NCBI GenBank assembly: GCA_963836235.1
Contig: CAWIIP010000001.1
Span: 448,001-512,000, forward strand
Reading direction: 5' to 3'
DNA length: 64,000 nucleotides
Origin: an uncultured Pseudomonadota bacterium
GTDB lineage: Bacteria; Oederibacteriota; Muellerivitia; Muellerivitales; Muellerivitaceae
A model generated the notes under the pieces. The model searched no databases and was not told the DNA's origin. It saw nothing but the letters and a program-made list of their open reading frames with translations. Made by a program: the position numbers and the translations under genes. Shown here piece by piece: positions 21,311-64,000 of this stretch (position 1 is the first letter of the stretch; each line of letters starts with the position of its first letter).

Positions 21311-22362
21311 CCCCAGTTCAATAGCGAAGTGCAACACTTAGCCCCGGCAGAATCCGGGGGTTATCCTAAGTTTTATGAAACAATCCTACAAGCACCTGTC
21401 GTTGGCCGAACGTGAAGAAATCGCAGTTTGGAAGGCAGAAGGCCTCTCCATACGAGAAATCGCCCGACGCCTCGAACGTGATGTGTCCAGTGTTTCCCGA
21501 GAGTTGAAGCGTAACGCACCACCTTTACGTCCTGGCCGTTATCTACCAGCTCGGGCTCACCTGCGATCTACCCAGCGTAACCAACTCTCTCGGACCCATC
21601 TGCGTCTCAAAAAACCAGGGATCCGACAACATGTTTTGCGTAAGCTTCATCAGGGGTTTTCTCCCGAACAAATTGCTGGTCAGCTTCGCCTTGAGAACTC
21701 CAAACTATTCATTTCCCACGAGGCCGTCTACCAGTTCATTTATTCCGAAGCCCGAAACCTCATCCCTCTCTTGGCTCGTTCCCATCGAAAGCGGCTTCGC
21801 CGATGGCATTCGCACAAACATCGAAAAAGCCATATTCCAGAACGAACTCCGATCACTCAACGACCCGCCATCGTGCAGACGCGGCGTCAATTTGGTCACT
21901 GGGAAGCGGACACCATCATCTCCAGAAAAAGTAAAGCCTCCCTTTTGGTGATGGTCGAACGAAAAAGCCGCCTCGTGAAACTCGCCTGGTTGCCTCAAAA
22001 GTCCGCTTCGAAAACACGAGCAGCTATCAATCGACGGCTCACCCTCTTTCCGAAGGGGTTACGCCGGACCATTACTTACGACAACGGCTCTGAAAACATC
22101 GAGCATCTTCAAGTTAACAATCTCTTAGGAACCCGTTCCTTTTTCTGTCTTCCTTTCCACAGTTGGGAAAAGGGAACCGTCGAAAACACTAATGGTTTGG
22201 TGCGGCGCTTCTATCCAAAGAAAACCGATTTTGCTACCATAACTCCAGCGAACGTGCGACGTGTGGAGCGGGCTCTCAACAGCCGTCCACGCAAGTGCCT
22301 TCGCTTCAAAACGCCGGAGCAGGTCTTTCGTCTAGGTGTTGCACTTACTGGTTGAATTCAGC
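21311..22362 (+). mobile_element. IS30-family insertion sequence (about 1052 bp)
   Basis: Imperfect terminal IRs with core TTCAA-N5-AAGTGCAACAC (21317-21337) and GTGTTGCACTT-N5-TTGAA (22336-22356); 3-bp direct repeat GTC at 21308-21310 and 22363-22365. Confidence 0.9.
21375..22355 (+). CDS. IS30-family transposase
   Basis: N-terminal HTH (LSLAEREEI..SIREIARRLERDVSSVSRELKRN), SPEQIAG, DDE motifs GHWEADT / TYDNGSE / WEKGTVENTNG, LNSRPRKCL. Confidence 0.96.
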   Translation: MKQSYKHLSLAEREEIAVWKAEGLSIREIARRLERDVSSVSRELKRNAPPLRPGRYLPARAHLRSTQRNQLSRTHLRLKKPGIRQHVLRKLHQGFSPEQIAGQLRLENSKLFISHEAVYQFIYSEARNLIPLLARSHRKRLRRWHSHKHRKSHIPERTPITQRPAIVQTRRQFGHWEADTIISRKSKASLLVMVERKSRLVKLAWLPQKSASKTRAAINRRLTLFPKGLRRTITYDNGSENIEHLQVNNLLGTRSFFCLPFHSWEKGTVENTNGLVRRFYPKKTDFATITPANVRRVERALNSRPRKCLRFKTPEQVFRLGVALTG

Positions 22363-28675: not shown

Positions 28676-29767
28676 TCAAAATTTCCTTTCCGCTTCAAAC
28701 GCCAGAATATTCTTGATATAAAATTCACCCGGCTGTGTCGATTCATCCCTCAGACGGCTTAAGCTAAGGTTAGCTATCCATTGCGGAGACCATTCCCAGC
28801 TTGTTTTTATGGATAGTAGATCTTGACTATCCTCGTCCACGTAACCGATTTGAAGGTCGGGATTGACTAGTGGTGGTACGTCATAAATTTTTGAATATAG
28901 CCTAAAAAACAACTGCAAGTATAAAGATGAAGCCGGACGGAGAACCGCTGCCCAGGAAATGCTTTCAACTGTATTAGAAAATCCGTAGCTGTTTGAGTTT
29001 GTCCTTTGGTGCTCAATATTAATGTCTTGAAGTATAGAATCAAAGTAAATATGGGCGTTTAAAATACCTGACCAAGTTTCATCGGTTTGAATTCCCGAAA
29101 AATTAACAAGCGTTCCATTAACGAACCCAACCGGATTTCGATCAAATTGTCGGTTATTATAACTTCCTTCCATCTTCAACGAAATTTTCTCATTGATTTC
29201 CTGTTGAACGTTGAAAAACAACTCTTGGTCCACAAAATTTCTTGATTTGTAGGTGTTGCTAGGATCGAAATAGTCGCGAGAATAATAATTGTAGTCAGTT
29301 TCGTATGAACGCGAACCGGCGGGAGCCCATTGAATTTCCAAATAATTATTGTCATCGTAATAATTAAAATCGGAATACTCGCTTGTTCGTAGATAAAATT
29401 CTTTCTTATAAGAAAAACTCCATTCATTTGGATTTACAGAGATTGAAAGATTAAAATCATTAATTAAATTATTGAGAACCGAGTAAAGTTGATACTGGTC
29501 CGCCCCCAAGTGATATCCCAAATCGCTTTTGAGAATATCAAAATTGGAGTGCGCTTCAGCTCCAAAATTCAACGAATAAACCTCGTCCGGAAGTCGATTA
29601 TCCAAAGAAGCCCCCCGAAAGACGTTATCATCGTATCGTAACCCTACTTCAACTGTTTCGGGAACCGCCTCTAAGTGAAAATAATTTGGAGAAATTGATT
29701 CTTGTGCAAATCCCAAAAATGGCAATAACCAAAAGGTTAACCGGATCAAGAATAGAGTTTGTTTCAT
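28676..29767 (-). CDS. Putative outer-membrane beta-barrel protein
   Basis: Signal peptide (..LPFLGFA/QE), GLRYDDNV start motif, Tyr/Asn/Ser-rich alternating strands, C-terminal Phe (LAFEAERKF). Confidence 0.65.
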   Translation of the reverse strand: MKQTLFLIRLTFWLLPFLGFAQESISPNYFHLEAVPETVEVGLRYDDNVFRGASLDNRLPDEVYSLNFGAEAHSNFDILKSDLGYHLGADQYQLYSVLNNLINDFNLSISVNPNEWSFSYKKEFYLRTSEYSDFNYYDDNNYLEIQWAPAGSRSYETDYNYYSRDYFDPSNTYKSRNFVDQELFFNVQQEINEKISLKMEGSYNNRQFDRNPVGFVNGTLVNFSGIQTDETWSGILNAHIYFDSILQDINIEHQRTNSNSYGFSNTVESISWAAVLRPASSLYLQLFFRLYSKIYDVPPLVNPDLQIGYVDEDSQDLLSIKTSWEWSPQWIANLSLSRLRDESTQPGEFYIKNILAFEAERKF

Positions 29768-30738
29768 TTGGTTCTCTCCTCACTAGAAGTCGCCAATTGA
29801 TTTTGAACTTTTTCAGTGAATTGATCGAGTTGGGCTAAGGATTCTTGACCGTGTTTAATCAAGCCCTGGATCTCGTTAAAATGAGATTCCAAGCTTTTTA
29901 TTTGCTTGCTGAAGGTGATGTCGCTCAAATTATTTTTTTTCATGTTTCCGCTAGCGAAATCTGAATCTTCATTCATTCGCTTGATGCCTTCTAGGAAATC
30001 CTGCATTTCACCCTGAAGCTTTAACTCGTTTTTAATTTCATCCTGCTCAATTGACCATTTTTCAAGTTTTTCTTCCAAATCCTTCTTCCTATCTCGGATT
30101 AGATCTAAAGTCATTTGCAGACCCTCTCGGTCATCGGTTTTAAGTGAACCCAAAGATACAATAGGAAGATTCTCAGCAGGGCTTGGTTTAGTTCGATACT
30201 TTTTCATCAAAATTTGGAGTTGGTTTCTCTTTTGTATTAAAAAGGACAGTGTATTAATCTTTTGCTGAAGCCCGAACGATTCGGAAGCGTTGCTAGATTT
30301 CAGTTCACTTTCTATTTTGTTATTGTAAAGCTCAATAGCAGAAAGAGTTTTTTGTTCAAATTCCTTTTGTTGATCATCCCGATCGTGTTGAAGAACCGAG
30401 CTTTTTTCAAGATCATCTTTTAAATCATTCAATAAACCTTTAAGTCGAATTTCATCAAAAACATTTGATCCACTTTGGGTATTCTGTCGAAGTTCCTCAA
30501 TTTTTACCTCAAGGCGATTAATATTTTTCTGAAGTAAGTTGAAATCGTTTTTATTTTTATCCAGTCGATTTGTGAGGTCTGTGATTGATCCTTGAAACTG
30601 TAGTACAGCTCCTTTCCACTGCGGATCAGATAAAACAACCTCAGCACTGGGGGATGGCAAAACAGAAGGTTCGGAATAACAAAGAGCTGAAACGACAAAA
30701 GTTAAGAAGAATTTGAAAAAAAGAGAAAAATTAGTCAT
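29764..30738 (-). CDS. Exported long coiled-coil protein
   Basis: N-terminal hydrophobic signal, heptad-rich L/E/K/Q helices throughout; ATGA overlaps on both sides. Confidence 0.7.
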   Translation of the reverse strand: MTNFSLFFKFFLTFVVSALCYSEPSVLPSPSAEVVLSDPQWKGAVLQFQGSITDLTNRLDKNKNDFNLLQKNINRLEVKIEELRQNTQSGSNVFDEIRLKGLLNDLKDDLEKSSVLQHDRDDQQKEFEQKTLSAIELYNNKIESELKSSNASESFGLQQKINTLSFLIQKRNQLQILMKKYRTKPSPAENLPIVSLGSLKTDDREGLQMTLDLIRDRKKDLEEKLEKWSIEQDEIKNELKLQGEMQDFLEGIKRMNEDSDFASGNMKKNNLSDITFSKQIKSLESHFNEIQGLIKHGQESLAQLDQFTEKVQNQLATSSEERTK

Positions 30739-32126
30739 TCCGATTGATTGCTTCCTTCATTTCCATCGGTTAACAAACCGTATTTTTTCAGCTTATATAT
30801 AAGGGCAGTACGGTTGATGTCTAAAAGCTTCGCCGCTTTTGTTTGGACATGATCAGCTTTTTCCATAGCTTTTAGAATGAGTTCCTTCTCATAATTCTCA
30901 ACTTTTTCAGTGAGACTTGCGTCTTCTTTTAGATAATGCAGGTACTCATCTTTTTGAAATGTTTGAATATCGAGAGGTAGATTGGAAGGATATATCGTAT
31001 CCGTATCTGATAAAACAACCGCTCTTTGAATAGCATTTTCGAGTTCCCGGACATTTCCGGGCCAATTGTAACGAGTCATTAGTTCCAAAGCTTTTTTTTC
31101 GATTTTAGTTATTTTTTTATTTGCTTCCAGGCTATACCTATTTAAGAAATGAAAACTCATTCGCTCCATGTCCTCTTTGCGATCTCGAAGGGGGGGGACG
31201 TTGATGGGGACGACATTGAGCCGAAAAAAAAGATCCTCCCGGAATTGTCCCTTTTTAATGGCCTCTTCTAGATTTTTATTTGTGGCGGCTATTACTCGCA
31301 CATCGGCTTTGATACATTCGGTGCCACCAACCCGTTCAAATTCTTTTTCCTGCAGAACACGCAAAAGTTTTACCTGTGTGGAAAGGCTTATATCACCTAT
31401 TTCGTCCAAAAAAATGGATCCACCATTCGCAAGCTCAAAACGGCCGATTCTCTTCCCAGCAGCTCCGGTAAACGAACCTTTTTCATGTCCAAACAATTCG
31501 CTTTCCAAAACCCCTTCGGCCAAAACAGCACAATTTACTTTAATAAAGGGTTTATCCTTCCGCCGACTGTTGAAATGAATGGCATGGGCAACTAATTCCT
31601 TCCCCGTGCCTGACTCACCGCGGACAAGGACAGCGGTATCAGTTGGCGATACTTTTTCGATCAATTCGTAGACCGGTTGCATGGCGGGGCTGTTTCCGAC
31701 AATCCGTTTGTAGTTATATTGATCGTTTAGTTTTTCACGGAGGTATTTATTTTCATAAAGCAATTTTTGGCGTTCAATTGCTTTTTCGACCGTCAATTTC
31801 ACTTGTTCCGTTGAGAATGGCTTCGTAATGTAATCATAAGCCCCTAATTTCATCGCTTCAACCGCCGTCTCAATGGTGCCGTAAGCCGTCATAATGATAA
31901 CCACAATTTCGGTATCAAGTTCCCTGATCATTTTAAGAAGGGTCATGCCGTCCAGTTTAGGCATTTTAATGTCCGTAATGACCAGATCCACGTGTTTCGA
32001 TTTTATCGTTTCCAAAGCTTTTTCCCCATCTTCCGCTTCTAAAACATTACGTTGGTCGCTCTCTAGGGTTTGCCGAAGGACTTTTCTCATACTGGATTTA
32101 TCATCTACCAATAATATTGTGCTCAT
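30735..32126 (-). CDS. Sigma54-dependent response regulator (NtrC family)
   Basis: REC domain (LVDD, DIKMP, TKP), AAA+ GESGTGKE, ESELFGHEKGSFTGA, FLDEIG, WPGNVRELEN, Fis-type HTH. Confidence 0.96.
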   Translation of the reverse strand: MSTILLVDDKSSMRKVLRQTLESDQRNVLEAEDGEKALETIKSKHVDLVITDIKMPKLDGMTLLKMIRELDTEIVVIIMTAYGTIETAVEAMKLGAYDYITKPFSTEQVKLTVEKAIERQKLLYENKYLREKLNDQYNYKRIVGNSPAMQPVYELIEKVSPTDTAVLVRGESGTGKELVAHAIHFNSRRKDKPFIKVNCAVLAEGVLESELFGHEKGSFTGAAGKRIGRFELANGGSIFLDEIGDISLSTQVKLLRVLQEKEFERVGGTECIKADVRVIAATNKNLEEAIKKGQFREDLFFRLNVVPINVPPLRDRKEDMERMSFHFLNRYSLEANKKITKIEKKALELMTRYNWPGNVRELENAIQRAVVLSDTDTIYPSNLPLDIQTFQKDEYLHYLKEDASLTEKVENYEKELILKAMEKADHVQTKAAKLLDINRTALIYKLKKYGLLTDGNEGSNQSE

Positions 32127-34000
32127 GAAACCGCCTCTCTCTTTATTTCGCTGATGGGTAAAATGATCAAAAACATCGCACCACCTTCTGAACGGCCAGC
32201 CGCTGACACACTGCCTCCCAAAGATTCAATAATTTTTCGAGTGATCGACAAGCCTAAACCAAATCCTTCTGTTTTGGTCGTGAAAAATGGATTAAATAAT
32301 TTTTTATAGTTTTCAGGCGCGATTCCGAAACCTTGGTCCAAAACCCAAACTCCGGCCCAATATCCCTCGGTTTCCGCCGGCACTAAATCTGTAAATCCTT
32401 TTTCGAACAAAAAATCAATCAGTTCGACGCGAGTAAACCCCTCTATTCCAATTTGTATTTCTTTTTCTCGGGGCGAAGCCTGGATAGCGTTTAAAGCTAA
32501 ATTTAAAATAGCTCTTCGAAATTGTTCAACGTCAAGTCTCAAAAACAATTCCTTCTTTTTTTTGAAAACCACTCTAATCTGCTTTGCTTCCGCTTCTTTT
32601 TCAATCAGTGGAAGAACGCCTTGAACAGCCTCGGACAATTGGGTTTCCTGGGAATCCAAGGAAGTTGGCTTAGCAAAAACCAAGAAATTGGTTACGATTT
32701 TATTCAAAATTTCAATTTCCGAAGCAATATCAGCAACCATCTCTTGGGCATCGGGTAATTGAACAAGTTTTTTTTGAAGAATCTCCGCAAAACCCTTCAT
32801 TGCACCAAGAGGATTTCGGATTTCATGCGCAATTCCAGCCGCCAATTCACCAATCGTTGCCATTTTTTCGGTAGTTTTGATCTGTGTTTGAAGTCGCCGC
32901 AATTGAGTTTCATCCGTAAAAATCATTTCGGTTCCCAACTCCTGGGAATCCGGACCTAACAGAGGCGCACTTCGAAGTCGGATGAATTTCGGGTTTTCTT
33001 CCGATAGATTAATTTCCTGATTTTCAAGACATTCGTGGGTCAAATGAGCGGTTTTAACGGCATTTAAAAAGTTTGGGAACTTGGAAAAAACCTCTTGAAA
33101 ATCTCGGCCCATAGCTATTTCCTTCGGGATTTCAAGGATTTGGGAAGCGGCCTGATTGAAGGTAGTAACCGTTCCGTTTAAGTCCAATACCAACAATCCA
33201 TTCGACATGCTTTCTAAAATATACTCGTTATGGCTTTGAAGTCGTTTTGTCATTTCATTGAAGGCATAGGCCAATGCCCCCAGTTCATTCGTGGAAGTTA
33301 CCGGAATTCGGAGGCTAAAATCGCCTTCCGCAATTTTTTGAGAAGCCCGAGCCATAGCCTCAATGGGTGAAATAAAACGCCTTCCGAATGCAAAAAGAAG
33401 ACCACCCATAAGCATTAGGCAGACAAGCCCGAAAGTGAACAATACTTTCGCAAATTGATCAAGCCCGTCAATGAATTTGGCACTTGCTTCGACTCCAAGG
33501 ACGGCGATGATTTTTTTATTTTTGTAAACCGGCGCGTACCCGATTTTGTATATGCCGCCGTCGCTTTCCGGAAACAGAATGGACGCAGATGGAACACCGT
33601 TTTTGGCTTGGGAAAAGGGTTCAGGATCTAAATCACGAAGCCAATTATTCTCATGAAAGTCATATTGTTCATTAGCGTCAACGAGAACCTGGCCGGATAA
33701 ATCCAGTATAAAAATATTTTTGGCCTGACTTTCTATTTTTTTTTCAGCTAAAAAATTACGAAATTTTTCATAAAGCTCCCCCTTTCCGTCAAGAAAAGGA
33801 AGCCATTCCGCCCGGGTTTGGCCTGAGGATAACCTAGCAATAGCTAAGAGACGGTCCCCCATTTCCCCATCAAAAGTTTTTTTGGATACGTAATAAGCGA
33901 ATCCTCCGTAGACAAAAAGAATGATGATTCCAACGAAGAGGGTACGGCTTACTAATTCGGCAAGGACGCTTCCATGAAAATATGGGGATGTTTTCTTCAT
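32123..34000 (-). CDS. Membrane sensor histidine kinase (Cache-like / HAMP / PAS / HisKA / HATPase)
   Basis: 2 TM segments, HAMP (NELGALAYAFNEM), PAS, H-box AHEIRNPL, N-box NLALNAIQA, DQGFGI, FFTTK..GFGLGL; ATG at 34000 preferred. Confidence 0.95.
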   Translation of the reverse strand: MKKTSPYFHGSVLAELVSRTLFVGIIILFVYGGFAYYVSKKTFDGEMGDRLLAIARLSSGQTRAEWLPFLDGKGELYEKFRNFLAEKKIESQAKNIFILDLSGQVLVDANEQYDFHENNWLRDLDPEPFSQAKNGVPSASILFPESDGGIYKIGYAPVYKNKKIIAVLGVEASAKFIDGLDQFAKVLFTFGLVCLMLMGGLLFAFGRRFISPIEAMARASQKIAEGDFSLRIPVTSTNELGALAYAFNEMTKRLQSHNEYILESMSNGLLVLDLNGTVTTFNQAASQILEIPKEIAMGRDFQEVFSKFPNFLNAVKTAHLTHECLENQEINLSEENPKFIRLRSAPLLGPDSQELGTEMIFTDETQLRRLQTQIKTTEKMATIGELAAGIAHEIRNPLGAMKGFAEILQKKLVQLPDAQEMVADIASEIEILNKIVTNFLVFAKPTSLDSQETQLSEAVQGVLPLIEKEAEAKQIRVVFKKKKELFLRLDVEQFRRAILNLALNAIQASPREKEIQIGIEGFTRVELIDFLFEKGFTDLVPAETEGYWAGVWVLDQGFGIAPENYKKLFNPFFTTKTEGFGLGLSITRKIIESLGGSVSAAGRSEGGAMFLIILPISEIKREAVS

Positions 34001-34256
34001 TGAATTTCCACAATGGCCTCTTGGCAAAAACTTTTAAACCATCTCGCCGTTGGTTTCCACATTCCTGGAGTTCTTGGAAAAGTCGTAGTTTGGTCAGGAA
34101 ATACGGGGAATCTCTTGTAAATGTGGAGTTATGAATTCCTACAAAGTGACTGAGACTCATAATCTGTCACTTAATTGACGATGTGGTTAAATTATAACAC
34201 CAAGGATGGTATTTGTGAAATTTTTGACGATAATTCCCGAGGTAAATTACTCAAGT

Positions 34257-38321: not shown

Positions 38322-39788
38322 TTAATAAACTTCAATGTTGCCAACGACAATATCCCCGGCGGTATAAGGCCCAGGATAGCCACTTTCATTAACGTCGACT
38401 CCAACAGCTGTTATATCCGTCCCATCTGACCCTGCAAAAGCTGGTGCAAAAGTCGCCGTATGCCAGGCTGTTTGAGGGAATCCAGGATAATAACAACTTC
38501 CGGTTGCAGAACATTGCCCAGGCCAACCATTGTAGTCACCGCCATATCTCGTTGCACCAGAACCAGCAGTCACATAAGGATAGGCTGTCCCTCCGGTGGT
38601 GCTCGCACTAACCCAGAATTGGATACTAACCGTGGATAATCCCAAGGAAGTCCAGTTCCAGTTTGCCGGAACTGAAGGCGAACCAGACGCGGTATTACAC
38701 TCGGCTTGAATATCATTCACCGTAGCCCCACCCGGGAAAGAGAAATCCAAAGCACAAGTACTTGTACCGGTCCATCCAGTTGCTAATCCCGTTATAGTCG
38801 TTACTGCCATGTAACTGGGAGGTGCGGCCGGTGAAACTTGCGCCCAATAATCCACAGCGCAATCGGTGAAAGCCCAAGTTACTCCATTCGAAGACGGTGT
38901 TGGGGTCGGTACCGTATTATTCAAAATTTGCACATCAGCAATTTCAATTGTCACGGATTCCGCCCCGCCAGGATTAGGAGAACCTCCATAGAGTAATTGC
39001 AAACCGACCTGCGATACACCCAATGTGTCAGCGGTAAGGGTATAAGTGATCTGTGTCCAGGTAGTGGCCAGGGTATTTTGCCAACCACCTGAAATACCAC
39101 CTCCGGTTCCATTCGCGATAATCTGTGCGTTTTGATTGCCTGTCCCCGCACCGCTTGAAACTTGGTACCAAAGAGAAATGGTACTTCCGACATTCAGTTT
39201 AACACCCGTTGACCAGACAACCGAGACGACCACGGAATCCGTTATGGAAGAAAAAACAACACCTTCCTTTATTGAATTTTGACCAGAGTACGTATCTGTT
39301 GTATCCCATACGGGAGTCGCATCAAATGTCGGGCTTCCACTTCCCGAGGCCTGCCAGCATTCATTGTCACTGGGAAAGGTGTAGTTCGCTTGGAAAGTTG
39401 GATTGCATGCGACTGTAGCCGTTGGAGTGCTCGTTATCGTCGGCGTGAGCGTAAGGGTCGGGGAGCTCGTAATCGTGGCTGTGGGTGTGATCGTCAGTGT
39501 GTTCGTAATAGTCGCAGTTGGGGTGTTGGTTCCCGTATTGGTAGGGGTGCTAGTGGGACCAATAGGCGTATTAGTGATGGTTGAAGTCGCTGTAGCCGTT
39601 TGGGTGTGAGTGGGGGTGATTGTTGGTGAAGAGGTGGGTGTTGAAGTAATAGCTGGCGTTGCGGTAATGGCTACGAAGGAGGGGCTGACAGGAACCGAGA
39701 TTTGCCTTGTACAACCAACGAAAAAACCTGTTCCGGTTAATCCTGTTAAAAGAACTCCCACCAGCAAAACACGCCATGAATTCATCAT
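38322..39788 (-). CDS. Thr/Pro-rich surface lipoprotein with two putative beta-sandwich domains
   Basis: Signal peptide ending FVG-C (lipobox-like), long (T-x)n stalk, two Trp/Cys-containing globular domains linked by PTPTP. Confidence 0.75.
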
Positions 39789-39839: not shown

Positions 39840-40015
39840 ATCAAAGCGACCTAAATTACCACTTAAAAATGTTGAAATCAATTTCTATTTGGGCCAAAAC
39901 TGCCATTTTAACGGGAAATCAGTTTGGATTTTGACATGATATAAAAATACCTAAGTTAAACCCTTTTAGTCAGAGCTTAACTTAGGTGAAAATAATTGGA
40001 ATGACATAGACCTTA

Positions 40016-40309
40016 ATGGACAACAACTACCTTGCCCGTCTTACTCCGGACGGTTTGTCCATCGTTGGCTTGAATGGAATAAATATAAAGTCCGCTCGCC
40101 ACGACTCCATTCGATGAGTTGCGGCCTTGCCAGGGTAAGGAGTTGTTTCCAACCTGTCCCTCAAGCGTCGTCTGGAAGATCTGCTCTCCCAATAAGGTAA
40201 TGTAACGCCCGAAACCATCACGAAAGACTTAATTAAAAACCTAGGAAGGACGGCCGATTATGAGGAACGAAAAGGCATGAGAAAATTATTTAACGACTTC
40301 ATCAAATAG
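40016..40309 (+). pseudogene. Possible decayed gene remnant
   Basis: One frame reads protein-like from ATG to TAG with three internal stops (40115, 40136, 40193). Confidence 0.25.
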
Positions 40310-42737: not shown

Positions 42738-45632
42738 TTATTTTGCGGGCGTCATTTCAATGCAAGTAATGGAATAAGGAGGGAAAGTGTATTCAAAGCG
42801 TCCCTTCACCACCTTGGAACCTTTTAAATGGGCGGGTCCAGAGTCGATGACCGCCCGGTAAAGATTCTCGCTCCATTGGTACTCTTTGGAACTCAATTCG
42901 TAAAAGTCTAAATGAAACTTATTTTTGAGGGGTGAGCCGAGATTGATGGCCGTTTGGAAGGCGTATTTCGGCGTTTTATTGATCACCAAAAGGTATTTTT
43001 TTCCTTCACCGGAACTGGCATAGGCGGAAAGCTCATCGGAATCGGAGACCGCTTGGAAAAGCGTGGTCCCAAAATAGTGCTCCATCATATAGAGAGCCCA
43101 ATAATGTGCCCTTGGAGCGAAAGGATGTTGCGGATCGTTGTTGGGGTCAATCATACCGTGTCCCCCGCCCTGTCCAGGCTTCTCGGTAAACATATCCCAA
43201 ATATTGGTTTGATTCACTCCCCAAACCATCATTTGAGCCAGATAATCGGCGCAAAAGATTCCGTTGATGAGTTTGGCCGTAGCGGGAACTTCGTCGCCCG
43301 AATTCCACTCGCTGACGGCGATTTCAATTTTATCCGCGCGGTCTGGAATGTTTTTGGCAATGGCTTCCCTGATTTTCGGGATGTATTCGGCCCAAAGACT
43401 TGTCTTGGATAAGAGGTTGGAGTCGCTGTCATTGCTCCAATAGGGATAAGTGTGAATTGAAACGACATCTACATAAGGTCCGCATTCTTCTAAGAACTTT
43501 TCTACCCACCAAGGCGCGGTTTCAGGCGCCAGCCAGGGAGAACCCTCTTTTCTTTCATGGTTCTGGAATTGAGCGGGGGTCGGTCCCATGATTTTGATGT
43601 CCGGGTATTTAGCCTTAATGGCTTTTGCGAATTCAATAAAATGCTGGCAATAATTGTCGATGACTGTCCAATATTGAGTCTGGCCGTTGTACTGCATGTC
43701 CGCCTCATAATCCGGCTCGTTTCCCAATTCGACATATTTGACCTTAAGGCCTTGGGCTTTGGCGTCCGCGATCCAATCGAGGGTATTCTGGACGTCCATG
43801 GTCATGATATTGGCGATATAGAGGAACTCCCCGTTAGGAAGCCGTTTAATGAAATCAACCATTTGTGGCCAACCAAAAGGCCAAACAGTTTGAACGGTCT
43901 TTCCGTCCTTTTGAAGGGATGAGCTGGTCTTCCACTGCCAGATGTTTCCGTACTCCCCGCCCGGAATTCGGACATAGGAGGTGATATCCGTCATTTCCTT
44001 CATAGCCGTGGGGTCCGTAAACCACTTAGGATCATGCCAAGCGGCGATATTGTTTCCAAACATATAATGGCGATTGATTGTCCGGATTTTTTTATCGAAG
44101 AAAACATCCACGGCAGCCCTTTTCACCAAAGACGTTTCGGGTTCCAAAGCCACCGCCCAATTGTTTGCCTTTGAAGCGGAAACAGTGACGCTCTCTTTAT
44201 CAAGTTTGTACCCAGGCGCGAAAACTTCAGCCGTATAGCTGTCTTCGGGTAAATCCATCTTGAAAGAACCGGCGTCGTCGGCCGTCACTAGTTTTTTGGC
44301 GATGGCCACTTGGGCGCCCGGAATAGGGTTCCCGGTGGTTTTGTTGGTGACTTTCCCTGACAAAGAGGTTGCGGCGCCTTTCATAATCCCACGAATGTTA
44401 TCCAAAACCACCGAACCGACAATGGGTCCGCCCGAATTGAAAACGAGATAAACCTTGTTCACTCCACCTTTAAACTGGGTTGAATCCACATCCTCCTTCA
44501 TGTGATTCCAGCCTTCCCGCATTTTCATCTTGATCTCATTCCAACTATTGGCCGGGCTCTGCGTAATGATGTAAAGTTCCCCGTAACCAGCCTTGGCCAA
44601 ACTCCCCTTGGGATAGTAAATATCAAAAGTAATCGCTTTAAAATTTTCCCACTTATCCCCCATGGGCACGGCGGAACAGATCGCTAAGCTTTGGTTCCAA
44701 CCTTGAGACCCATCGGTATCAATTCGCAAAGCTCCGGTTCCCTCGGTTACGGTCGTGGCTTCGGGTGACACCTTTCCTTCAAAACCACCGACATCACCAT
44801 TAAAACCCCAAATTAAAACACCCTCTGTAGAAGCCTCTTTCTTGCCAACTGTGGGATCCATCTCAGTAGATTGAGACCCCGGCATAGCTTGTTTGGGGGC
44901 GGTATTCGCATACACCGTCTGGCCGTTGAATTGAAGGGTTCCCCAACCGGATGGGTCCTGCCAGCTTTTGTCGCTTTGGGACCAGGATAATTGAAGTGTC
45001 CGGGTCTTCCCCGTAGCGCCCACGTCGTCTAAAGCTACATCAAACCCAATGGTTTTACCGGGCCCCACATTAATCTTATAAAAAAAGGAAAGGGGGATGG
45101 AAACTTCCATCGTATATCCTGTTTTGGTCATCTTAGTGGCGATCTTGGCGTTCGGAATATCCGCTTGGTCGGTCATGCTGTAAACTTCAGCCCCGTCTCC
45201 ATTCTTTCCGGGCGAGATAACAAATTGAACATCGGTTGGGGAGTAAGCCTTTCTTTCGGGATTAGATAAATCCGTGCCGACATAAAATTCCAATGCGTCA
45301 CCGTTATAGATGTCGCTGGCGTTCATGCTGTTGAATTGGGGATTTTTACTGGTGATATCCGCCCCGATATAAAGATTGGTCTGGTCGTAGGTGAGATAAA
45401 TTCGGGCGCTGGCGATATCAGGCCCGGTCCAATCACCCTGTCCGATAACGACATTTTCTTTTTTATCCAGTGTAATAGCCGGTTGAGCCGTCCAATCAGA
45501 CAAGTCCCCATCGACCTGAATAGGAGTGGCGATGTCGGAAATGGAAACGGTCGGGGCCGCGATAATTTTCGCTGGAAAATAAATCAAAACAGTTGCTAAG
45601 AAAAACCAATGGCACAATTTTAGGATTTTCAT
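42738..45632 (-). CDS. Secreted multimodular clan GH-A glycoside hydrolase (CBM9-like + CBM-like + carboxypeptidase-regulatory-like + catalytic domain)
   Basis: Signal peptide; IQVDGDLSDW...YDQTNLYI...GYTMEVSIP (CBM9-like); GKVTNKTTGNPIPGAQV; YVRIPGG, VELGNEPD (acid/base), IAVSEWN (nucleophile). Confidence 0.8.
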   Translation of the reverse strand: MKILKLCHWFFLATVLIYFPAKIIAAPTVSISDIATPIQVDGDLSDWTAQPAITLDKKENVVIGQGDWTGPDIASARIYLTYDQTNLYIGADITSKNPQFNSMNASDIYNGDALEFYVGTDLSNPERKAYSPTDVQFVISPGKNGDGAEVYSMTDQADIPNAKIATKMTKTGYTMEVSIPLSFFYKINVGPGKTIGFDVALDDVGATGKTRTLQLSWSQSDKSWQDPSGWGTLQFNGQTVYANTAPKQAMPGSQSTEMDPTVGKKEASTEGVLIWGFNGDVGGFEGKVSPEATTVTEGTGALRIDTDGSQGWNQSLAICSAVPMGDKWENFKAITFDIYYPKGSLAKAGYGELYIITQSPANSWNEIKMKMREGWNHMKEDVDSTQFKGGVNKVYLVFNSGGPIVGSVVLDNIRGIMKGAATSLSGKVTNKTTGNPIPGAQVAIAKKLVTADDAGSFKMDLPEDSYTAEVFAPGYKLDKESVTVSASKANNWAVALEPETSLVKRAAVDVFFDKKIRTINRHYMFGNNIAAWHDPKWFTDPTAMKEMTDITSYVRIPGGEYGNIWQWKTSSSLQKDGKTVQTVWPFGWPQMVDFIKRLPNGEFLYIANIMTMDVQNTLDWIADAKAQGLKVKYVELGNEPDYEADMQYNGQTQYWTVIDNYCQHFIEFAKAIKAKYPDIKIMGPTPAQFQNHERKEGSPWLAPETAPWWVEKFLEECGPYVDVVSIHTYPYWSNDSDSNLLSKTSLWAEYIPKIREAIAKNIPDRADKIEIAVSEWNSGDEVPATAKLINGIFCADYLAQMMVWGVNQTNIWDMFTEKPGQGGGHGMIDPNNDPQHPFAPRAHYWALYMMEHYFGTTLFQAVSDSDELSAYASSGEGKKYLLVINKTPKYAFQTAINLGSPLKNKFHLDFYELSSKEYQWSENLYRAVIDSGPAHLKGSKVVKGRFEYTFPPYSITCIEMTPAK

Positions 45633-57110: not shown

Positions 57111-57869
57111 TTAAAAATTGGCGCTTTGGCGTGGCGTTCTTCCGAAAACAAGGGCTCCCACCCAGACAATACCGGCTTTCTTCAAAACCCTCGCGCATTC
57201 TTCTAATGTAGCTCCCGTTGTAAAAACATCGTCAACTAAGATAGCTTTCTTTATCGACGAACTCTGCTCCAAGGCATTATAAGCTCCCTTCGGATTCTTT
57301 AATCGCTCCGCCCTGTGAAGGGACATCTGGGGTATCGTTGATTTGATCTTTTGGAGGATCGGTCGCATCGGAATCCGGGTTTGAACAGAGATTTCATCCG
57401 CCAAAAGGGCAGCGGGGTTATACCCTCTTTCCCTTTCCCGTTCAGGGCTTAGGGGAACTGGAATCAAGACCTCCACCCCATCCCAGAATGAAGGAATAAC
57501 CGGACGAACCATTCTCCGGGCAATTTCCGTTTTCAAACTTTCCATACCCTCAAATTTGAATCCATGATGGGTTGTCCGTAAAGCACCGTCATAGGGCCCA
57601 AAAGCCCTAACCCGGTCTAAAAAATAGGGCTCATCGCCGCAGTCTTTACATCTTATAAGTACCGCGCCTTCAAATGCTCTCACCGGTAAAGAAATACCGC
57701 AATGCTCGCAAAGGGGATCCTCATAAGATTCCATGGTTTCAAAACAGGACCTGCACAGAATGTTTGATAGGCCGATATCAAAAAACTCACCGCAATGCTC
57801 GCATTTTTTTGGAAAAAATAGATCAACAAAATTGTTTTTAAGGTTTTCGAAAAAGACGTTTTTTAACAT
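57111..57869 (-). CDS. comF: ComF family protein (double zinc ribbon + PRTase)
   Basis: DLFFPKKCEHC, four CxxC motifs, PVPL..RERERGYN, LVDDVFTTGATL. Confidence 0.93.
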   Translation of the reverse strand: MLKNVFFENLKNNFVDLFFPKKCEHCGEFFDIGLSNILCRSCFETMESYEDPLCEHCGISLPVRAFEGAVLIRCKDCGDEPYFLDRVRAFGPYDGALRTTHHGFKFEGMESLKTEIARRMVRPVIPSFWDGVEVLIPVPLSPERERERGYNPAALLADEISVQTRIPMRPILQKIKSTIPQMSLHRAERLKNPKGAYNALEQSSSIKKAILVDDVFTTGATLEECARVLKKAGIVWVGALVFGRTPRQSANF

Positions 57870-60800
57870 TACTTGATAACAGCAACTTTGCTGAATTCTT
57901 GGTGGCCACCCGGCGATTCGGTCGTGATGAGGTAAACCCCGGACGCCACCAGGTTTCCGTTCTTGTTATGGGCGTCCCAACTCGTCCAGTAGATTCCCGG
58001 CTGATAATAGACCTGGTTCACCAGGGGCTCAATAAAGGTCCCATCCAAGGTATAAACCTTGATAGTGACATTCCCCGGCGTGGTCACGACAAACCGGATC
58101 TTCACCAACTGCTCATTGCTGGCGCCAAAGGGCCGGATCGCGTTCCGGTCCAACGCCGTGTTGGGGCTAATGGGGTAACCTGTCACCGGATTGTAGCCGC
58201 TGAGGTGCACCAAATCCTCCGTCACCGCCTCGGAAAGAGGAACCGGAAGGTCAGGCGGATTATCAAAAGCTTGGACCAAATAGGTATAAGGAATTCCGTT
58301 GATCAAGGTTACCGGGTCAAAGTAACTGGCCGAAGCGGTGGGAAGTCCGTTTACAAAAGTCGCCGGAATGGTACCGATATTTTGGTAAACCCCGCCACCG
58401 TCCATGGACCGGGAAATAGAATAGCCTCCTAAGGGATACATGGTTTGGGGATTAAAGGTTTGGTCAGCCCCTCCCCAAGAAAGGGTGTTCCCTATCAGAG
58501 TCTGGGTATCGCTGGTGTTTTGAGTCAATGTGACCGGCGAACCAGTGACGAGAATGGTCGATCCACCCGATTCCGCGGTTTGTACGATTGGGAGAATAGG
58601 CGCCGCCGCAGGCAAGGCTATGGCTGACGCGTAAGCGTTTGAAGTCATACCTTGAGCATCCACCGTGTAAACATGATAAACATAGTAATTTTTGTCTTGA
58701 ACGCCTGTATCGATGAAGTTCGCGCCCTGGTACCTGTTGGCGATAGTTTGAAAAGACGCAGCTGAGGCTGGCCCCAATTTCCGTTGGATGATAACCGTGC
58801 TGTTGGTGACTCCCTCGGAATTCCAGCGTAATTGAACCAAACTATCACTTGAAACCGCAACGAGGTTGGAAACCGGCTTGGGATAAGTATTTTGGCCGAC
58901 GATGTTCGAAAAGGGGCCCAGGATATTATTTTGCGAGCTTGGGGCAATCTCATAAATATAAGAGACGCCATCGGTTAAATTCGACGTGTCGACATAATTA
59001 GTATTCGAGATTGGTTCGACAATTGATCCAATCGGAGCGAAATTCGGGGTTTGGCTGGGGGTCACCCCTGCCCGGTAAATGGCATATCCGGTCACCGGGC
59101 TGGTGGCGGCCACGGTTATGGGCATCCAAAAAAGCTGGTTACTTTCGGCGAGTGGAGTGAGGTAGAGGGTTGGCACCGGAGCGGGGATAAAGCTTTGGGG
59201 CGCGGAAAGGCCGCTATTCCCAGAGGCATTTTGAGCGTCCATCCAGTAGATATATGCCGTTCCCGTAGTGACTGCCGAATCGAAATAATTATTGATTGGC
59301 GGTGTACTGGAGACCAATGGTGTTGGATTGGGTGTCATCGTCGGATAGAGGCTCCGGTAAATATCATACCCGGTAACGTTCACGTTGTTCCCTGTCGGGG
59401 TGGCCCAGGACACCGTCACCGAGGTGGCGTTTCCCGCAAAGGAGAAATTAGTCGGATTGGGCCAAAGGGTGACCCCCCATTGGGCGGAAACCGCCGGGTT
59501 CGAGTTGAGGCCCAATCCATTATTCGCCACTACTTGGTAACTATTCACGTAACCGGGGGCAAACCCCGTATCGGAATAATAAGAAACCGGTGAATTGACC
59601 GACCCTATGGCGACATAAGTCGGGGTGGTGCTGGGCGTTGGAACGCTGAGCCGATTGATGGAATATCCGCCAACGGCATTGGAATAAGTCAGTCCTGTGA
59701 TCCAGACCGCCGGGTAAAAAGCGGGAGTTTGACTGGGAACCGGGGTCACATAGGGCGGCGGAGTTAATCCGATACTGGGCGTCACGGCAGGCGGCACCAA
59801 GACGCTGACGGCCTGGGAAAGGGTGCTGGGCCCGGCCGAGTTATTGGCCACCACTTGGTAAACCGAAAGATTCCCGGGAGTTTCCACGAAACCCACGGAT
59901 AAAGTGGGGCTTGGGGTGACGGTCATGGTGGGTGTTCCATTTTGATAAATCACGTAACTCAGTACATTTTCCTGGCTTGCGTTCCCCGCCCAATAGAGGG
60001 TCGTCTGATTGGCACCAGAAATGGACGTAAGCCCTGAAGGCGCATTGGGCCATATGAGTACGCTTCCCTGAGGATCCGGCGTCAAAACCGAGTAAAGAGG
60101 GCTTTCCGCCGATTGTCCCGACCTAGCTGTTACGCGATAGTAATAACTCACCCCCGCTGTGGCGGTGGGCGGCACATCCATATAGCCGGTAGTTGAAATC
60201 GGAACGGTCGTCACCGGCGTAAAATTGGCGTCAGGTGTCAGAGACCGGTAGATCCCATAAGAATCGATCACCGGGGTAACGGTCAAAGCCGGAACCAGGT
60301 TCCAACTCACCGAAACTTGCTGGGTTCCAGCCGGGATGACGGCAGTGACATTGTAGGCCGGAACCGGGATGCCATTCATTGTCGCTGGCTGGCTATTACC
60401 GACGGCGTTTTGGGCCACTAAGTAATAATTGTTGGCGGTCCAGGGGGTCGGCGTCGGGGCGAATGTAAAGACCCTTGTGGGTGTCCCGGTGGCTGGCGCC
60501 ACCAGGACGGGAGTTGGAGTGTTGCCGCTCACCGTAAGCCAATCCGAGCCATAAACCAGATAATTGGTCACACTATCGGCCCTTGGATTCGCGGCCCAAG
60601 AAAAGAGAATAGATGTGTCCGACCCCGTGAAAGGCAATACCCGGGGTGTTGCCGGAGGATTCGATAATAAAATGGTCGTAACGGGGTTGGAAGAAGCCGG
60701 GTCAGAGGTATTCCCCAAGGCGTCCGCCAAAGCAACCTGATAACCCAGGAGGGTTCCAGGGGTCAATTCGGGGGCAATATCGGTGTAGCTGAGTTGAGTC

Positions 60801-62506
60801 GCCGGGACCTTGGCGACGAACCGGGGGGTGGGCGTGGGTGTGGTGAAGTTTAAGCGGAAAATCACGTACCTCTGGGCGGAATCAAAAAAACCGGGCGTGC
60901 CGGCCTGCCAGGAGACAGCGATTTGATCATTTCCAACAGGCGCAGCGGCACCCACATTCGTGGGCGGTGTCGGGGCCAGATTCAATGCGGGGGGAACGGC
61001 GACTCCCACCAATCCTCCGTGTCCGGTCGAGTCCAGCGGTTGAACCCAATAGTTCATATGATTTTGGATAGGAGTGTCGATAACCGGAGTAATGGTGTAA
61101 CCGACCGTTGGGTTGAAGGTAACGACATAAAAGGGATTCGGAGTTGCCGTCGCACTGGCAATAGGCGTTGGATTATTCGCTGGCACCCCATACAGGCTCT
61201 TATAAACCTGATAGCCCCCCAACCCATAAGTTCCAGACGTCGCCGGTTGCCAGGTAACGGTAACGGCATTGGTGGTGGCATCAGGCGTGACGATGATGGA
61301 TGCCTCACTACATTCAGCCACAGTAATTGAAATCGGATTGGAATTAGTGGTTCCAAAGGCGTTAGTCGCCTGAACGGTGTAGACGACTGGCTGGCCGGTT
61401 CCCGGAATGGTATTGTCAAAATAAGAAACTGACCCTGAACCTGCGTATGGAATGGTTGTCAGGGTGATCGAACTGTTTTGCAAAACCTGGTAAGCCGTCA
61501 CGTTCTCCGTGGACAATGAACCCGTCCAGGAAAGGCTCACTCCGTAGGTGGTTGTTGAAAGAACCCCGGTAAGGGAGACTGGTCCCGGCGGCGACATATT
61601 TTGGGGCAAAGCGGGGTTGGAAGGAACGGATGGTTGGGCGCTTAAATTTCCCGGGTTATCGCTATCCGCGGCCATCACTACGTAATAATAAGCTTCCGGG
61701 CCCGGGGAACAGGTTGTGTCGGAGTAAGAGGTTCCCGTAACGCTTGCCGCGATTAGATTTATGGGAACAAAAATGGTAGCGACCGATATTGGAGCAATCG
61801 GCGAAAAAACAGCGGTTGCGGTTGAAGTCGGCGTAAATGGTGTGGGAGTGAACGTGGCCGTTGAGGTGTTCCAAGTGCCAATGGGGGTGGAAGTGGCTGT
61901 AGGCGTTATCGTAGGGCTATTTGTGGAAGTGGAAGTCGGAAGGAGTGTCGTCGCCATATAGGCGTACCGATAAACGGAGTAATAAGAAATGGGGTAGCTG
62001 GAGACCGGCACTCCCCAGAAAAGATCCAAGGCATTGGAATGAATGTTCAGGACGCTCACCGGCTGAACGGCCGCCGGAGCAAGGAAAGGAGCCGCCGTCA
62101 CCGCTGACGATATCCCTGGGCCGTTTAGGTCAATTCCCTGCACCTGGTAGAGGTAAACCCGGCCATTGGTCACCTGAAAATCCTGGAAAACAGGCGTTCC
62201 TGCCTCTGGCATCGCGGATAAAAGCACTGTCGCTATGGGGGTCGGGGTGGCATCGGGCGTAAAAGGCCCCGTGGGCGTCGGTGTCGGGGTACAGGTCAAA
62301 TTCAACAATTGCCGGGAAATCGCATAAGCCGTAACACCCGATCCAAGCGTGTCCGGGGTCCATTCCAGGTTTACTTGGCCGTTATAAGGGGAAAGTATGG
62401 TAACCCCACTGGGCGCCGGGGCCTGGGCCCATACCGGCAAAGGCGAAAAAGGCGATAAAAACAAAAAAAGCAACCCTGCCGATGACCAGAAATATGAAAA
62501 TTTCAT
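57869..62506 (-). CDS. Large secreted fibronectin-III-repeat protein with a C-terminal FlgD-Ig / T9SS-CTD-like domain
   Basis: Signal peptide (..VWA/QA); about 13 repeats of pattern L.W...Y.IYR...Y.D...Y.Y.V.A; C-terminus IKVYTLDG...WDAHNKNGNLVASGVYL...KVAVIK. Confidence 0.85.
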   Translation of the reverse strand: MKFSYFWSSAGLLFLFLSPFSPLPVWAQAPAPSGVTILSPYNGQVNLEWTPDTLGSGVTAYAISRQLLNLTCTPTPTPTGPFTPDATPTPIATVLLSAMPEAGTPVFQDFQVTNGRVYLYQVQGIDLNGPGISSAVTAAPFLAPAAVQPVSVLNIHSNALDLFWGVPVSSYPISYYSVYRYAYMATTLLPTSTSTNSPTITPTATSTPIGTWNTSTATFTPTPFTPTSTATAVFSPIAPISVATIFVPINLIAASVTGTSYSDTTCSPGPEAYYYVVMAADSDNPGNLSAQPSVPSNPALPQNMSPPGPVSLTGVLSTTTYGVSLSWTGSLSTENVTAYQVLQNSSITLTTIPYAGSGSVSYFDNTIPGTGQPVVYTVQATNAFGTTNSNPISITVAECSEASIIVTPDATTNAVTVTWQPATSGTYGLGGYQVYKSLYGVPANNPTPIASATATPNPFYVVTFNPTVGYTITPVIDTPIQNHMNYWVQPLDSTGHGGLVGVAVPPALNLAPTPPTNVGAAAPVGNDQIAVSWQAGTPGFFDSAQRYVIFRLNFTTPTPTPRFVAKVPATQLSYTDIAPELTPGTLLGYQVALADALGNTSDPASSNPVTTILLSNPPATPRVLPFTGSDTSILFSWAANPRADSVTNYLVYGSDWLTVSGNTPTPVLVAPATGTPTRVFTFAPTPTPWTANNYYLVAQNAVGNSQPATMNGIPVPAYNVTAVIPAGTQQVSVSWNLVPALTVTPVIDSYGIYRSLTPDANFTPVTTVPISTTGYMDVPPTATAGVSYYYRVTARSGQSAESPLYSVLTPDPQGSVLIWPNAPSGLTSISGANQTTLYWAGNASQENVLSYVIYQNGTPTMTVTPSPTLSVGFVETPGNLSVYQVVANNSAGPSTLSQAVSVLVPPAVTPSIGLTPPPYVTPVPSQTPAFYPAVWITGLTYSNAVGGYSINRLSVPTPSTTPTYVAIGSVNSPVSYYSDTGFAPGYVNSYQVVANNGLGLNSNPAVSAQWGVTLWPNPTNFSFAGNATSVTVSWATPTGNNVNVTGYDIYRSLYPTMTPNPTPLVSSTPPINNYFDSAVTTGTAYIYWMDAQNASGNSGLSAPQSFIPAPVPTLYLTPLAESNQLFWMPITVAATSPVTGYAIYRAGVTPSQTPNFAPIGSIVEPISNTNYVDTSNLTDGVSYIYEIAPSSQNNILGPFSNIVGQNTYPKPVSNLVAVSSDSLVQLRWNSEGVTNSTVIIQRKLGPASAASFQTIANRYQGANFIDTGVQDKNYYVYHVYTVDAQGMTSNAYASAIALPAAAPILPIVQTAESGGSTILVTGSPVTLTQNTSDTQTLIGNTLSWGGADQTFNPQTMYPLGGYSISRSMDGGGVYQNIGTIPATFVNGLPTASASYFDPVTLINGIPYTYLVQAFDNPPDLPVPLSEAVTEDLVHLSGYNPVTGYPISPNTALDRNAIRPFGASNEQLVKIRFVVTTPGNVTIKVYTLDGTFIEPLVNQVYYQPGIYWTSWDAHNKNGNLVASGVYLITTESPGGHQEFSKVAVIK

Positions 62507-62621
62507 AAAAGTTCCTGAGTACCTTTTAAAATGGGGCTTCTCTTAAGTGAATTCTTCTCTTTTCCAGGCAAAGAAGACCCGGACAAGTTCCAGGTCCCGT
62601 ACCTTTTACCCGGCGTCAAAC

Positions 62622-64000
62622 TCAGAACCGCGCTTCCGCGGAAACCTCACCCTGCCACAAGGTATAGCTCAACTGGGAATTCAGGTCGTTCGTGAAATAC
62701 TCGTTGGCCAGGCTGAGGCCGATACGCAAATTTTTGAGGGCGTTGTAATTGAGGTTGATTGTAGCACGGTACCTTTGGGATTGAACCTCGTTGTAAATGT
62801 AGGTCGATTGGTTATTGATGAATTCCATAAGGAAGACCGCTTGCAACTCGATGGCGTCCTGAAGCTTGATCTTTAAATGAGTGAAAGGGATATGGATCTC
62901 CCCGTTGGGAGCGAACTTCTGGTCATATTCGATGGAAGCTTGGTCGTCATACTGAAAGGTCGGAATATTCGTGGTGGACAATCCATTCTGGTAACCAATG
63001 GTGCGTTGGAGCTTGATGTTGCCCTGGGCTTTTTTATTGATGTCATAGGGCAGGGTGATCGTGTAGGTATCGCTTTCGGTGTCGTTGGAAATATTGGCCG
63101 AAGTCGGGTCCGGAACCGAGCTATCGTATTGGATGGTGCCCGTGTGGGTGTACTGAACTTGGGCGGAATCCAGGGAAAAATTCACCAAAGGAAGGGTCAA
63201 TATCTTTTTGTTATAAATGGTGGTCAGTCCCAGGGTGTCCCCATCCTGTTTGACGGGGTTTGTGCCCTGTGACAAAAGGCTTAACTGGTCGGTCCAAGAG
63301 CCCGTGGGCCGGAAATCCCAAACATCGAAAAGGCGGAAACTGGCGTTCAATTGGTGGGCTACGGACTGGTTGCCGGTTAAGGCGACGTCAAAAGCGGGGG
63401 TAGTCAGCCACCGCTCGTTGAAACTTAGAGGTCGGACTTGATCGATATCGGGAATGGCGGCTGTGCCGCTTTCGGTGAGCCCGCCGAAGATGGTTAGGTT
63501 CATTTTCTGGAACAAAGAGAACCAACTGCCGGGAGTCAAGTTGAGGGAATAATTCACGTTGTTGGCGTTGTTGAACCGGGTCCCATCCGGATAGGAAACA
63601 TAGTCGTATTGGTTGCTTCCCGTAAAATCCACCGCGGGAATGAGCCCCGGTATTCCCCGGTAAACCACCCCAATCTTAGGCTGATATCTTTGATTGAAGG
63701 GGGTATAGCCGGAAACACTACCGGGAACTCCGGGCGAATTGGTATTCCCCGTCGCGTCCACCAGGGTCAAAGTATAGCCGGGGGTAAAGACAAGGTTTTT
63801 CACCAATTCGGTGGTGTTCGTCCAAGAATAGTTTTGCGACCGGGTGGTCCGGTCATAGGAAGACAAGGTGATGTTGTCAAAATACTGGGTGTCGTGAGTC
63901 AAACTGTAACTTTCCGTGAATTGGTTCGCGCCCCATGGGATAAAGAAGAAATTTTTCGGCGCGTCATAAGTGGAAGCCAATGTTTCGATCACCTCACCCT
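62622..64000 (-). CDS. C-terminal part of a large outer-membrane beta-barrel, SprA-like (5' end outside the window)
   Basis: Frame stays open to the window edge; continuous amphipathic strands; IHIPF..KIKLQDAIEL segment; C-terminal GEVSAEARF beta-signal. Confidence 0.6.
   Translation of the reverse strand, partial: GEVIETLASTYDAPKNFFFIPWGANQFTESYSLTHDTQYFDNITLSSYDRTTRSQNYSWTNTTELVKNLVFTPGYTLTLVDATGNTNSPGVPGSVSGYTPFNQRYQPKIGVVYRGIPGLIPAVDFTGSNQYDYVSYPDGTRFNNANNVNYSLNLTPGSWFSLFQKMNLTIFGGLTESGTAAIPDIDQVRPLSFNERWLTTPAFDVALTGNQSVAHQLNASFRLFDVWDFRPTGSWTDQLSLLSQGTNPVKQDGDTLGLTTIYNKKILTLPLVNFSLDSAQVQYTHTGTIQYDSSVPDPTSANISNDTESDTYTITLPYDINKKAQGNIKLQRTIGYQNGLSTTNIPTFQYDDQASIEYDQKFAPNGEIHIPFTHLKIKLQDAIELQAVFLMEFINNQSTYIYNEVQSQRYRATINLNYNALKNLRIGLSLANEYFTNDLNSQLSYTLWQGEVSAEARF

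Follow-up and report, generated by a model that had tools for sequence, protein, structure and literature searches.

A SprA-type translocon gene paired with a tailed Fn3 protein suggests a type IX-like export module in the candidate phylum FCPU426

The closest described counterparts of the system treated here belong to the secretion system of type IX (T9SS). T9SS was found only in Bacteroidetes among the genomes of 2013 (PMC4793230), its genes were described in 2024 as absent outside the superphylum of Fibrobacteres, Chlorobi, and Bacteroidetes (FCB) (PMC11285876), and proteins with its C-terminal domain (CTD) were described in 2025 as limited to FCB (PMC12398890). T9SS-like tails were noted in the candidate phylum Poribacteria, where no structural genes were found (PMC3909097). 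The translocon SprA is a barrel of 36 strands, for which a model involving tail recognition in the barrel, a PorV carrier, and lateral exit has been proposed (PMC10994853). In this study, we examined a stretch of 64,000 nucleotides of contig CAWIIP010000001.1 from an uncultured bacterium (the window), in which the gene of a large barrel is followed by that of a 1545-aa protein with a distinct C-terminal tail. An initial annotation, made from the sequence alone, had tentatively interpreted them as a SprA-like translocon and a cargo with a T9SS-type sorting domain in a host outside Bacteroidota, and that interpretation is largely supported. We estimate a probability of about 0.7 that the pair is a T9SS-type export module of a diderm of the candidate phylum FCPU426 that possesses lipopolysaccharide (LPS), consisting of a SprA-type translocon and a dedicated tailed partner.

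The barrel is a true homolog of Sov/SprA. The window contains only a 5'-open frame of 458 codons, whose product ends in EARF, and both this frame and that of the partner lie where they had been annotated (Table 1). A search among longer proteins, which gave 34 matches among 7999 candidates with relatives 44 to 80% identical, recovered the complete upstream product, the 2028-aa protein P0003, whose C-terminal end is 100% identical to the window fragment over the whole piece. The barrel also gave 15 matches at E ≤ 0.001 in a cluster-representative library, and no SprA relative was found in a plasmid search. P0003 scored 226.6 bits against TIGR04189, the curated Sov/SprA hidden Markov model (HMM) with a cutoff of 200, and this cutoff was exceeded by all 10 full-length family members scanned, with 4 to 5 matching stretches in each; for Pfam SprA_N (PF14349), one of the 10 scored above the cutoff and one more below it. 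When a profile of 31 family members was searched against the PDB, SprA (6H3I/6H3J) was found first, with an E-value of 1.5e-26 and three colinear stretches covering SprA residues 155 to 1554. The segment GEIHIPFTHLKIKLQDAIEL, which had been likened to SprA C-termini, aligns in a multiple alignment with the equivalent hairpin of the C-termini of Ignavibacteriales and other FCB-type SprA-family proteins, and the terminal Phe is present in 31 of 31 rows of the barrel family alignment. Neighbors of P0003 in the ESM Atlas (0.87) serve as leads only, with SprA_N on 12 to 20% of the cluster members.

The structural comparison was made with a model of the C-terminal 1087 residues of P0004, a relative that is 80 to 84% identical, predicted from a 37-row alignment with a predicted local distance difference test score (pLDDT) of 79 and a predicted template modeling score (pTM) of 0.50. 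Foldseek, the check recommended with the initial annotation, placed SprA in the top four positions for this C-terminal half (E-values of 6e-27 to 8e-23), followed by the next match at 5e-6. VIA-align superposed 873 to 911 residues, up to SprA residue 2399, with Z scores of 13.4 to 13.6 and a root-mean-square deviation (rmsd) of 11.5 to 11.8. In this model, 25 long strands follow one another in unbroken succession, corresponding to residues 1428 to 2026 of P0003, and 19 of these strands fall inside the window; if the 7 + 4 N-terminal strands deduced from the alignment with SprA are added, the barrel would have 36 strands in total, the number given above for SprA. The curated HMM, the profile search of the PDB, and the structure search thus all point to SprA. 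Like Sov/SprA from Flavobacterium johnsoniae (6H3I/6H3J/8GL6/8GL8), the protein has colinear N-terminal strands, extracellular cap domains, and a C-terminal barrel, and it belongs to a similar size class, although it is about 375 aa shorter and only 12 to 17% identical in the structural alignments. It also differs from SprA of Bacteroidota in its N-terminal Fn3 domain and short conserved motif, its terminal Phe, and its non-FCB host.

The N-terminal part of P0003 consists, in order, of a signal region, a low-complexity linker with the short conserved motif, and the Fn3 domain. The motif (residues 65-80) shows 53% identity versus 14 to 19% in its flanks, and the Fn3 domain (residues 127-229) shows 63%. 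Being acidic and hydrophobic within an otherwise unconserved linker, the motif is a candidate site for binding a partner. In F. johnsoniae, the N-terminus of SprA is held by SkpA and SprE (PMC10994853), and the rebuilt N-terminus of the FCPU426 barrel suggests periplasmic partners different from SprE of Bacteroidota.

The two genes remain together across the lineage. A single scan of GTDB genomes yielded 26 loci, and the Fn3 partner is the next gene in all 22 that hold the 3' region of the barrel gene (22 of 26 overall); among the remaining four, L018, L019, and L021 are cut off and L017 breaks into unrelated sequence after 725 aa. The unrelated sequence of L017 begins inside the barrel gene, from position 11971, and the locus may be chimeric. 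Of the 21 loci in which the C-terminus of the barrel is intact, 18 have at most 17 nt between the two genes; in the window, the gap is 115 nt. A weak terminator-like hairpin had been thought to separate the two genes; a hairpin with a 9-bp stem does exist there, but it is not conserved, and it is probably not a general separator because the gap is so short in most relatives. The hairpin was not called in the terminator scan, and the folding of the intergenic sequence was no better than that of shuffled sequences (z -0.90, 43 of 200 equally good), so the terminator reading was dropped as a general feature. The description of translocon and cargo side by side likewise holds with regard to adjacency, but the partner is a fixed, phylum-wide neighbor and not just any cargo. 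Upstream of the pair, related loci contain skp, lpxD, lpxC/fabZ, lpxA, lpxI, and lptF/G, and L026 additionally contains tamB and bamA. The host is therefore an LPS diderm, in which the adjacency of barrel and partner is kept beside lipid A, Lpt, Skp, and Bam genes; known SprA genes differ from this one in that it lies in a lipid A/Lpt locus and is coupled to a fixed tailed partner. On the downstream side, comF (57111-57869, minus strand) overlaps the stop codon of the partner gene by one base, and in 14 related loci it follows the partner gene and is succeeded by gap/pgk/tpi/secG.

The partner has a predicted Sec signal peptide, a long array of Fn3-like repeats, Pro/Thr-rich linkers, 15 TPT motifs in the protein as a whole, and the sorting-type C-terminal domain. 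One repeat passed the PF00041 cutoff and the others are weak profile matches, while a profile of the N-terminal Fn3 domain of the barrel detects the partner repeats with a best E-value of 1e-8. Scans of Pfam and NCBIfam found no catalytic domain or family in the protein. By eye, Gln directly after the signal peptide seems usual among the orthologs. Such a Gln recalls the "Q-rule" of Bacteroidetes. The most likely identity of the partner is that of a dedicated, nonenzymatic surface scaffold or adhesin that retains its tail; put more broadly, it is probably either a surface scaffold or, if not, a machine subunit.

The distinct C-terminal domain noticed at the outset is confirmed: the last 94 residues are predicted to fold separately as a 7-stranded beta-sandwich (pLDDT 89), and among 16 orthologs they are 65% identical versus 42.5% for the remainder of the partner. 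All 18 orthologous tails match TIGR04183 at E < 0.01, four of them above its cutoff, and FlgD_ig (PF13860) was passed by two of the 18. A fold search of 48,161 chains gave the CTD of PorU as the best match (Z 10.9, rmsd 3.4, 98 residues aligned), and a search of structures with the tail sequence profile gave FlgD first and PorZ second. The nearest neighbors in the ESM Atlas are FlgD_ig and Por_Secre_tail clusters (0.94-0.97). In 29 tail rows, G49 in the loop (YTLDG) and K100 in the last strand (KVAVIK) are invariant. A loop Gly and a last-strand Lys of CTDs have been tied to function (PMC11285876 and PMC10994853), and judging from the motifs the two invariant residues may well be their equivalents; CTDs can also differ in specificity between species (PMC11285876). 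A T9SS-CTD-like Ig domain thus forms the end of the partner, and the membership of this domain in the T9SS-CTD/FlgD-Ig clan is supported. It resembles type A CTDs (TIGR04183/PF18962; PorU 6ZA2, PorZ 5M11) in being an approximately 95-aa, C-terminal, 7-stranded sandwich with the loop Gly, the last-strand Lys, and an SGVY motif, and is unlike them in that most FCPU426 copies score below the cutoff and that the Fn3-array passenger is unrelated to the bodies of PorU and PorZ. With the Ig domains of FlgD (PF13860), Vpr, and ScpA it shares the fold and the segment W-d-g-x-n-x-x-G-x-x-V-x-x-G-x-Y, but here the domain terminates a secreted 1545-aa protein that is neither a hook cap nor a protease. A sorting role of the tail is likely because of its position, its motifs, and its linkage to SprA, the fold alone being no proof. 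A co-fold of barrel residues 262 to 1055 with the tail scored 0.00; this gave no verdict and was used neither way.

A second, paralogous tail was found elsewhere in the window as a decayed remnant (26.7 bits, E 2e-7, against 8.4 bits for the best of 20 shuffles of 747 segments), with sub-cutoff matches to Por_Secre_tail and FlgD_ig. By eye, the similarity appears to extend farther upstream, over 40013-40270, through two stop codons. The remnant shows that at least one further gene carried the tail.

Several results weigh against the proposed export module. On the side of the barrel, P0003 has no match to Pfam SprA_N, and as a single sequence it did not find SprA in the PDB; the 458-aa window fragment alone matched no Pfam family, no NCBIfam T9SS family, and no PDB sequence, so the family profile was needed. 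Small porins outscore SprA by Z (16.7 versus 13.6) for the half-barrel model with its low pTM, but their alignments span only about 280 residues; because distortion is expected in half a barrel, the outcome of this comparison is mixed. On the side of the tail, the window's own copy remains under the cutoffs of TIGR04183 (17.8 versus 23 bits) and FlgD_ig (17.5 versus 27 bits), and no copy of the 18 passes Pfam Por_Secre_tail. Tied with the fold match to PorU, at a distance of no more than 1 Z, are PorZ and the unrelated Ig domains of Vpr (10.4), ScpA, and complement C3 (both 9.9), and Foldseek on the tail ranked ScpA first and PorZ fifth. A search for shorter tailed proteins gave 24 matches among 78 candidates, and all seven that were examined are pieces of the same ortholog, so that an intact cargo of another kind was not demonstrated. 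Finally, no family match to PorV, PorQ, PorU, SprE, or GldKLMN was obtained among the 53 window proteins or among 43 representative flank open reading frames (ORFs) of 353 called; because this negative covers the window and its flanks, the missing genes could lie elsewhere. A 363-aa protein ending in Phe (28676-29767), tried as PorV, was dropped for lack of a family match.

If the pair is a translocon and its dedicated tailed partner, export would most likely proceed as in T9SS. By analogy with SprA biology, the partner would cross the inner membrane via Sec and fold in the periplasm; its tail would then enter the large barrel and bind a PorV-like carrier encoded elsewhere, and the protein would leave through the lateral opening of the barrel. 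The partner would be coexpressed with its translocon and would retain its tail, and other tailed proteins would take the same route. Transport itself, the carrier, and an energy source are thus what we infer by analogy with the described system.

One alternative, which we regard as rather unlikely, is that the barrel is indeed a T9SS translocon but the partner is a subunit of the machine, such as a plug, a periplasmic tether, or a PorZ-like component of an attachment complex, and not a released cargo. The fixed adjacency with apparent translational coupling, as the short gaps suggest, fits this idea, as do the resemblance between the partner repeats and the N-terminal Fn3 domain of the barrel and the unusually conserved tail, which is closest to the noncleaved CTDs of PorU and PorZ. 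Long Pro/Thr-rich Fn3 arrays like that of the partner are, however, usual in surface proteins. The decayed paralog has the same long type of tail, so this type may be the ordinary signal of the lineage, and a PorZ-type hairpin does not decide cleavage (PMC11285876).

Another alternative is that the tail is merely a structural Ig domain of the FlgD/Vpr type and that the SprA-derived barrel has been repurposed, either for one passenger or for a role other than export. The sub-cutoff HMM scores and the ties with ScpA, Vpr, and FlgD described above would be expected in that case, and no carrier gene was found nearby in the window and flank scans. Such an Ig domain would hardly account for the strictly C-terminal position, the invariant last-strand Lys, the second paralogous tail, and the linkage to a SprA homolog in 22 of 22 informative loci, and we consider this explanation very unlikely.

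It is still less probable that the pair represents an ordinary FCB T9SS, in a host affiliated with FCB or with genes recently taken from Bacteroidota. Titles of 13 of the 26 GTDB loci name FCPU426, and the phosphoglycerate kinase (PGK) of the window, which is 93% identical to that of L002, nests among the FCPU426 rows of a 14-row tree that holds no outside taxa. Three of the 26 loci, all close to the window, are instead titled "proteobacterium", which would speak for a different affiliation; these loci (L001-L003) share the FCPU426 gene order, and the PGKs of L001 and L002 nest among the FCPU426 rows. The host therefore groups with the candidate phylum FCPU426, an uncultured soil lineage, and is not a member of Bacteroidota, as the initial annotation had supposed. 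FCPU426 is listed as a phylum of its own (PMC11382960; further background is given in PMC10434106). Its 16S sequences fall together with those of Goldbacteria, beside Firestonebacteria and Elusimicrobia (PMC7031533), and these three neighbors have been assigned to the radiation of Planctomycetes, Verrucomicrobia, and Chlamydiae (PMC12057145), which places FCPU426 outside the FCB superphylum. In a FastTree phylogeny of 59 SprA proteins, a long branch with full support separates 14 FCPU426-like and 5 unplaced proteins, which lie together on the same side, from the four named FCB proteins; the tree is unrooted, 36 of the 59 rows lack a taxon label, and uneven composition was flagged. The five unplaced SprA homologs (P0050, P0057, P0058, P0059, and P0060), three of which have N-terminal Fn3 domains, suggest by this placement a wider non-FCB clade.

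That the upstream gene encodes a TonB-dependent receptor, LptD, or a porin can practically be dismissed: such barrels do appear in the structure-match lists, but P0003, with its 2028 aa, 25 consecutive C-terminal strands, SprA-type cap domains, and above-cutoff SprA HMM score, has no such match in Pfam or NCBIfam, and in Foldseek E-value, TonB receptors and LptD fall behind SprA by about 20 orders of magnitude.

Table 1. Positions in the window of the barrel gene, its partner, and associated elements.
Feature	Coordinates	Strand	Basis and remarks
Sov/SprA-family outer-membrane translocon gene, 3' part (C-terminal 458 of 2028 aa)	62622..63998	-	HMM, profile, fold of relative; ends in Phe
GEIHIPFTHLKIKLQDAIEL hairpin	62844..62903	-	Multiple alignment with SprA-family C-terminal regions
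RNA hairpin, 9-bp stem, in the 115-nt gap	62575..62597	-	Weak and unconserved; no more than a local attenuator
Partner (1545 aa): signal peptide, Fn3-like array, Pro/Thr-rich linkers, sorting-type C-terminal domain	57869..62506	-	
Sec signal peptide (predicted), residues 1-27, with VWA at its end and Gln at +1	62426..62506	-	By eye and ortholog N-termini
Fn3-like repeats, about 13, residues 28-1430	58217..62425	-	Weak profile matches; count approximate
T9SS type A-like/FlgD-Ig domain at the C-terminus, of the longer type found in PorU/PorZ	57869..58153	-	HMMs, fold, alignment; YTLDG Gly, KVAVIK Lys
Second, paralogous tail: decayed remnant, no start codon, stops just upstream	40013..40228	-	Tail profile search

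Elsewhere in the window, two further proteins on the minus strand lack the tail: a secreted probable glycoside hydrolase bearing CBM9 (42738-45632) and a Pro/Thr-rich probable lipoprotein (38322-39788). In the region 28676-34027 of the same strand, a sigma-54 two-component pair is followed by a coiled-coil protein and by a probable outer-membrane barrel of 363 aa, which has a terminal Phe and no family match. An IS30-family transposase gene (21375-22355, plus strand) lies beside tRNA-Val/Ala, and the window has eight tRNA genes in total.

The occurrence of a conserved pair of SprA and a CTD protein across FCPU426 contradicts the claims that restrict T9SS and its CTD proteins to FCB. No report of SprA or T9SS in FCPU426, Goldbacteria, or Elusimicrobia was found in the literature searched, which did not extend to subscription papers and supplements, where annotations of metagenome-assembled genomes might exist; the available parts of PMC12635249, PMC12204202, and PMC8542988 state nothing on T9SS distribution. 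The surprise is limited because the barrel passes NCBI's own cutoff and would already be named SprA in automatic annotation. The situation is like that of Poribacteria in that T9SS-like tails (TIGR04183-like in that case) occur in a candidate phylum, but is unlike it in that a translocon gene has been identified beside the tailed protein, and the FCPU426 pair may therefore bear on the unexplained poribacterial tails (PMC3909097).

The genomes of this lineage encode many carbohydrate-binding proteins, with 19 carbohydrate-binding modules per genome (PMC9765126), and the system would offer an export route for them. The pair is also a natural comparison for asking which parts of the translocon are essential and how export could be energized without the motor of Bacteroidota. 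A more far-reaching possibility, which we put forward tentatively and consider doubtful, is that FCPU426 and neighboring phyla hold a deep, non-FCB branch of T9SS that retains SprA and the CTD signal, lacks the GldKLMN motor and hub, and uses instead the rebuilt Fn3-bearing N-terminus of the barrel together with the Fn3-array protein. If this is true, T9SS would be older than FCB, and its minimal form would be the one present here.

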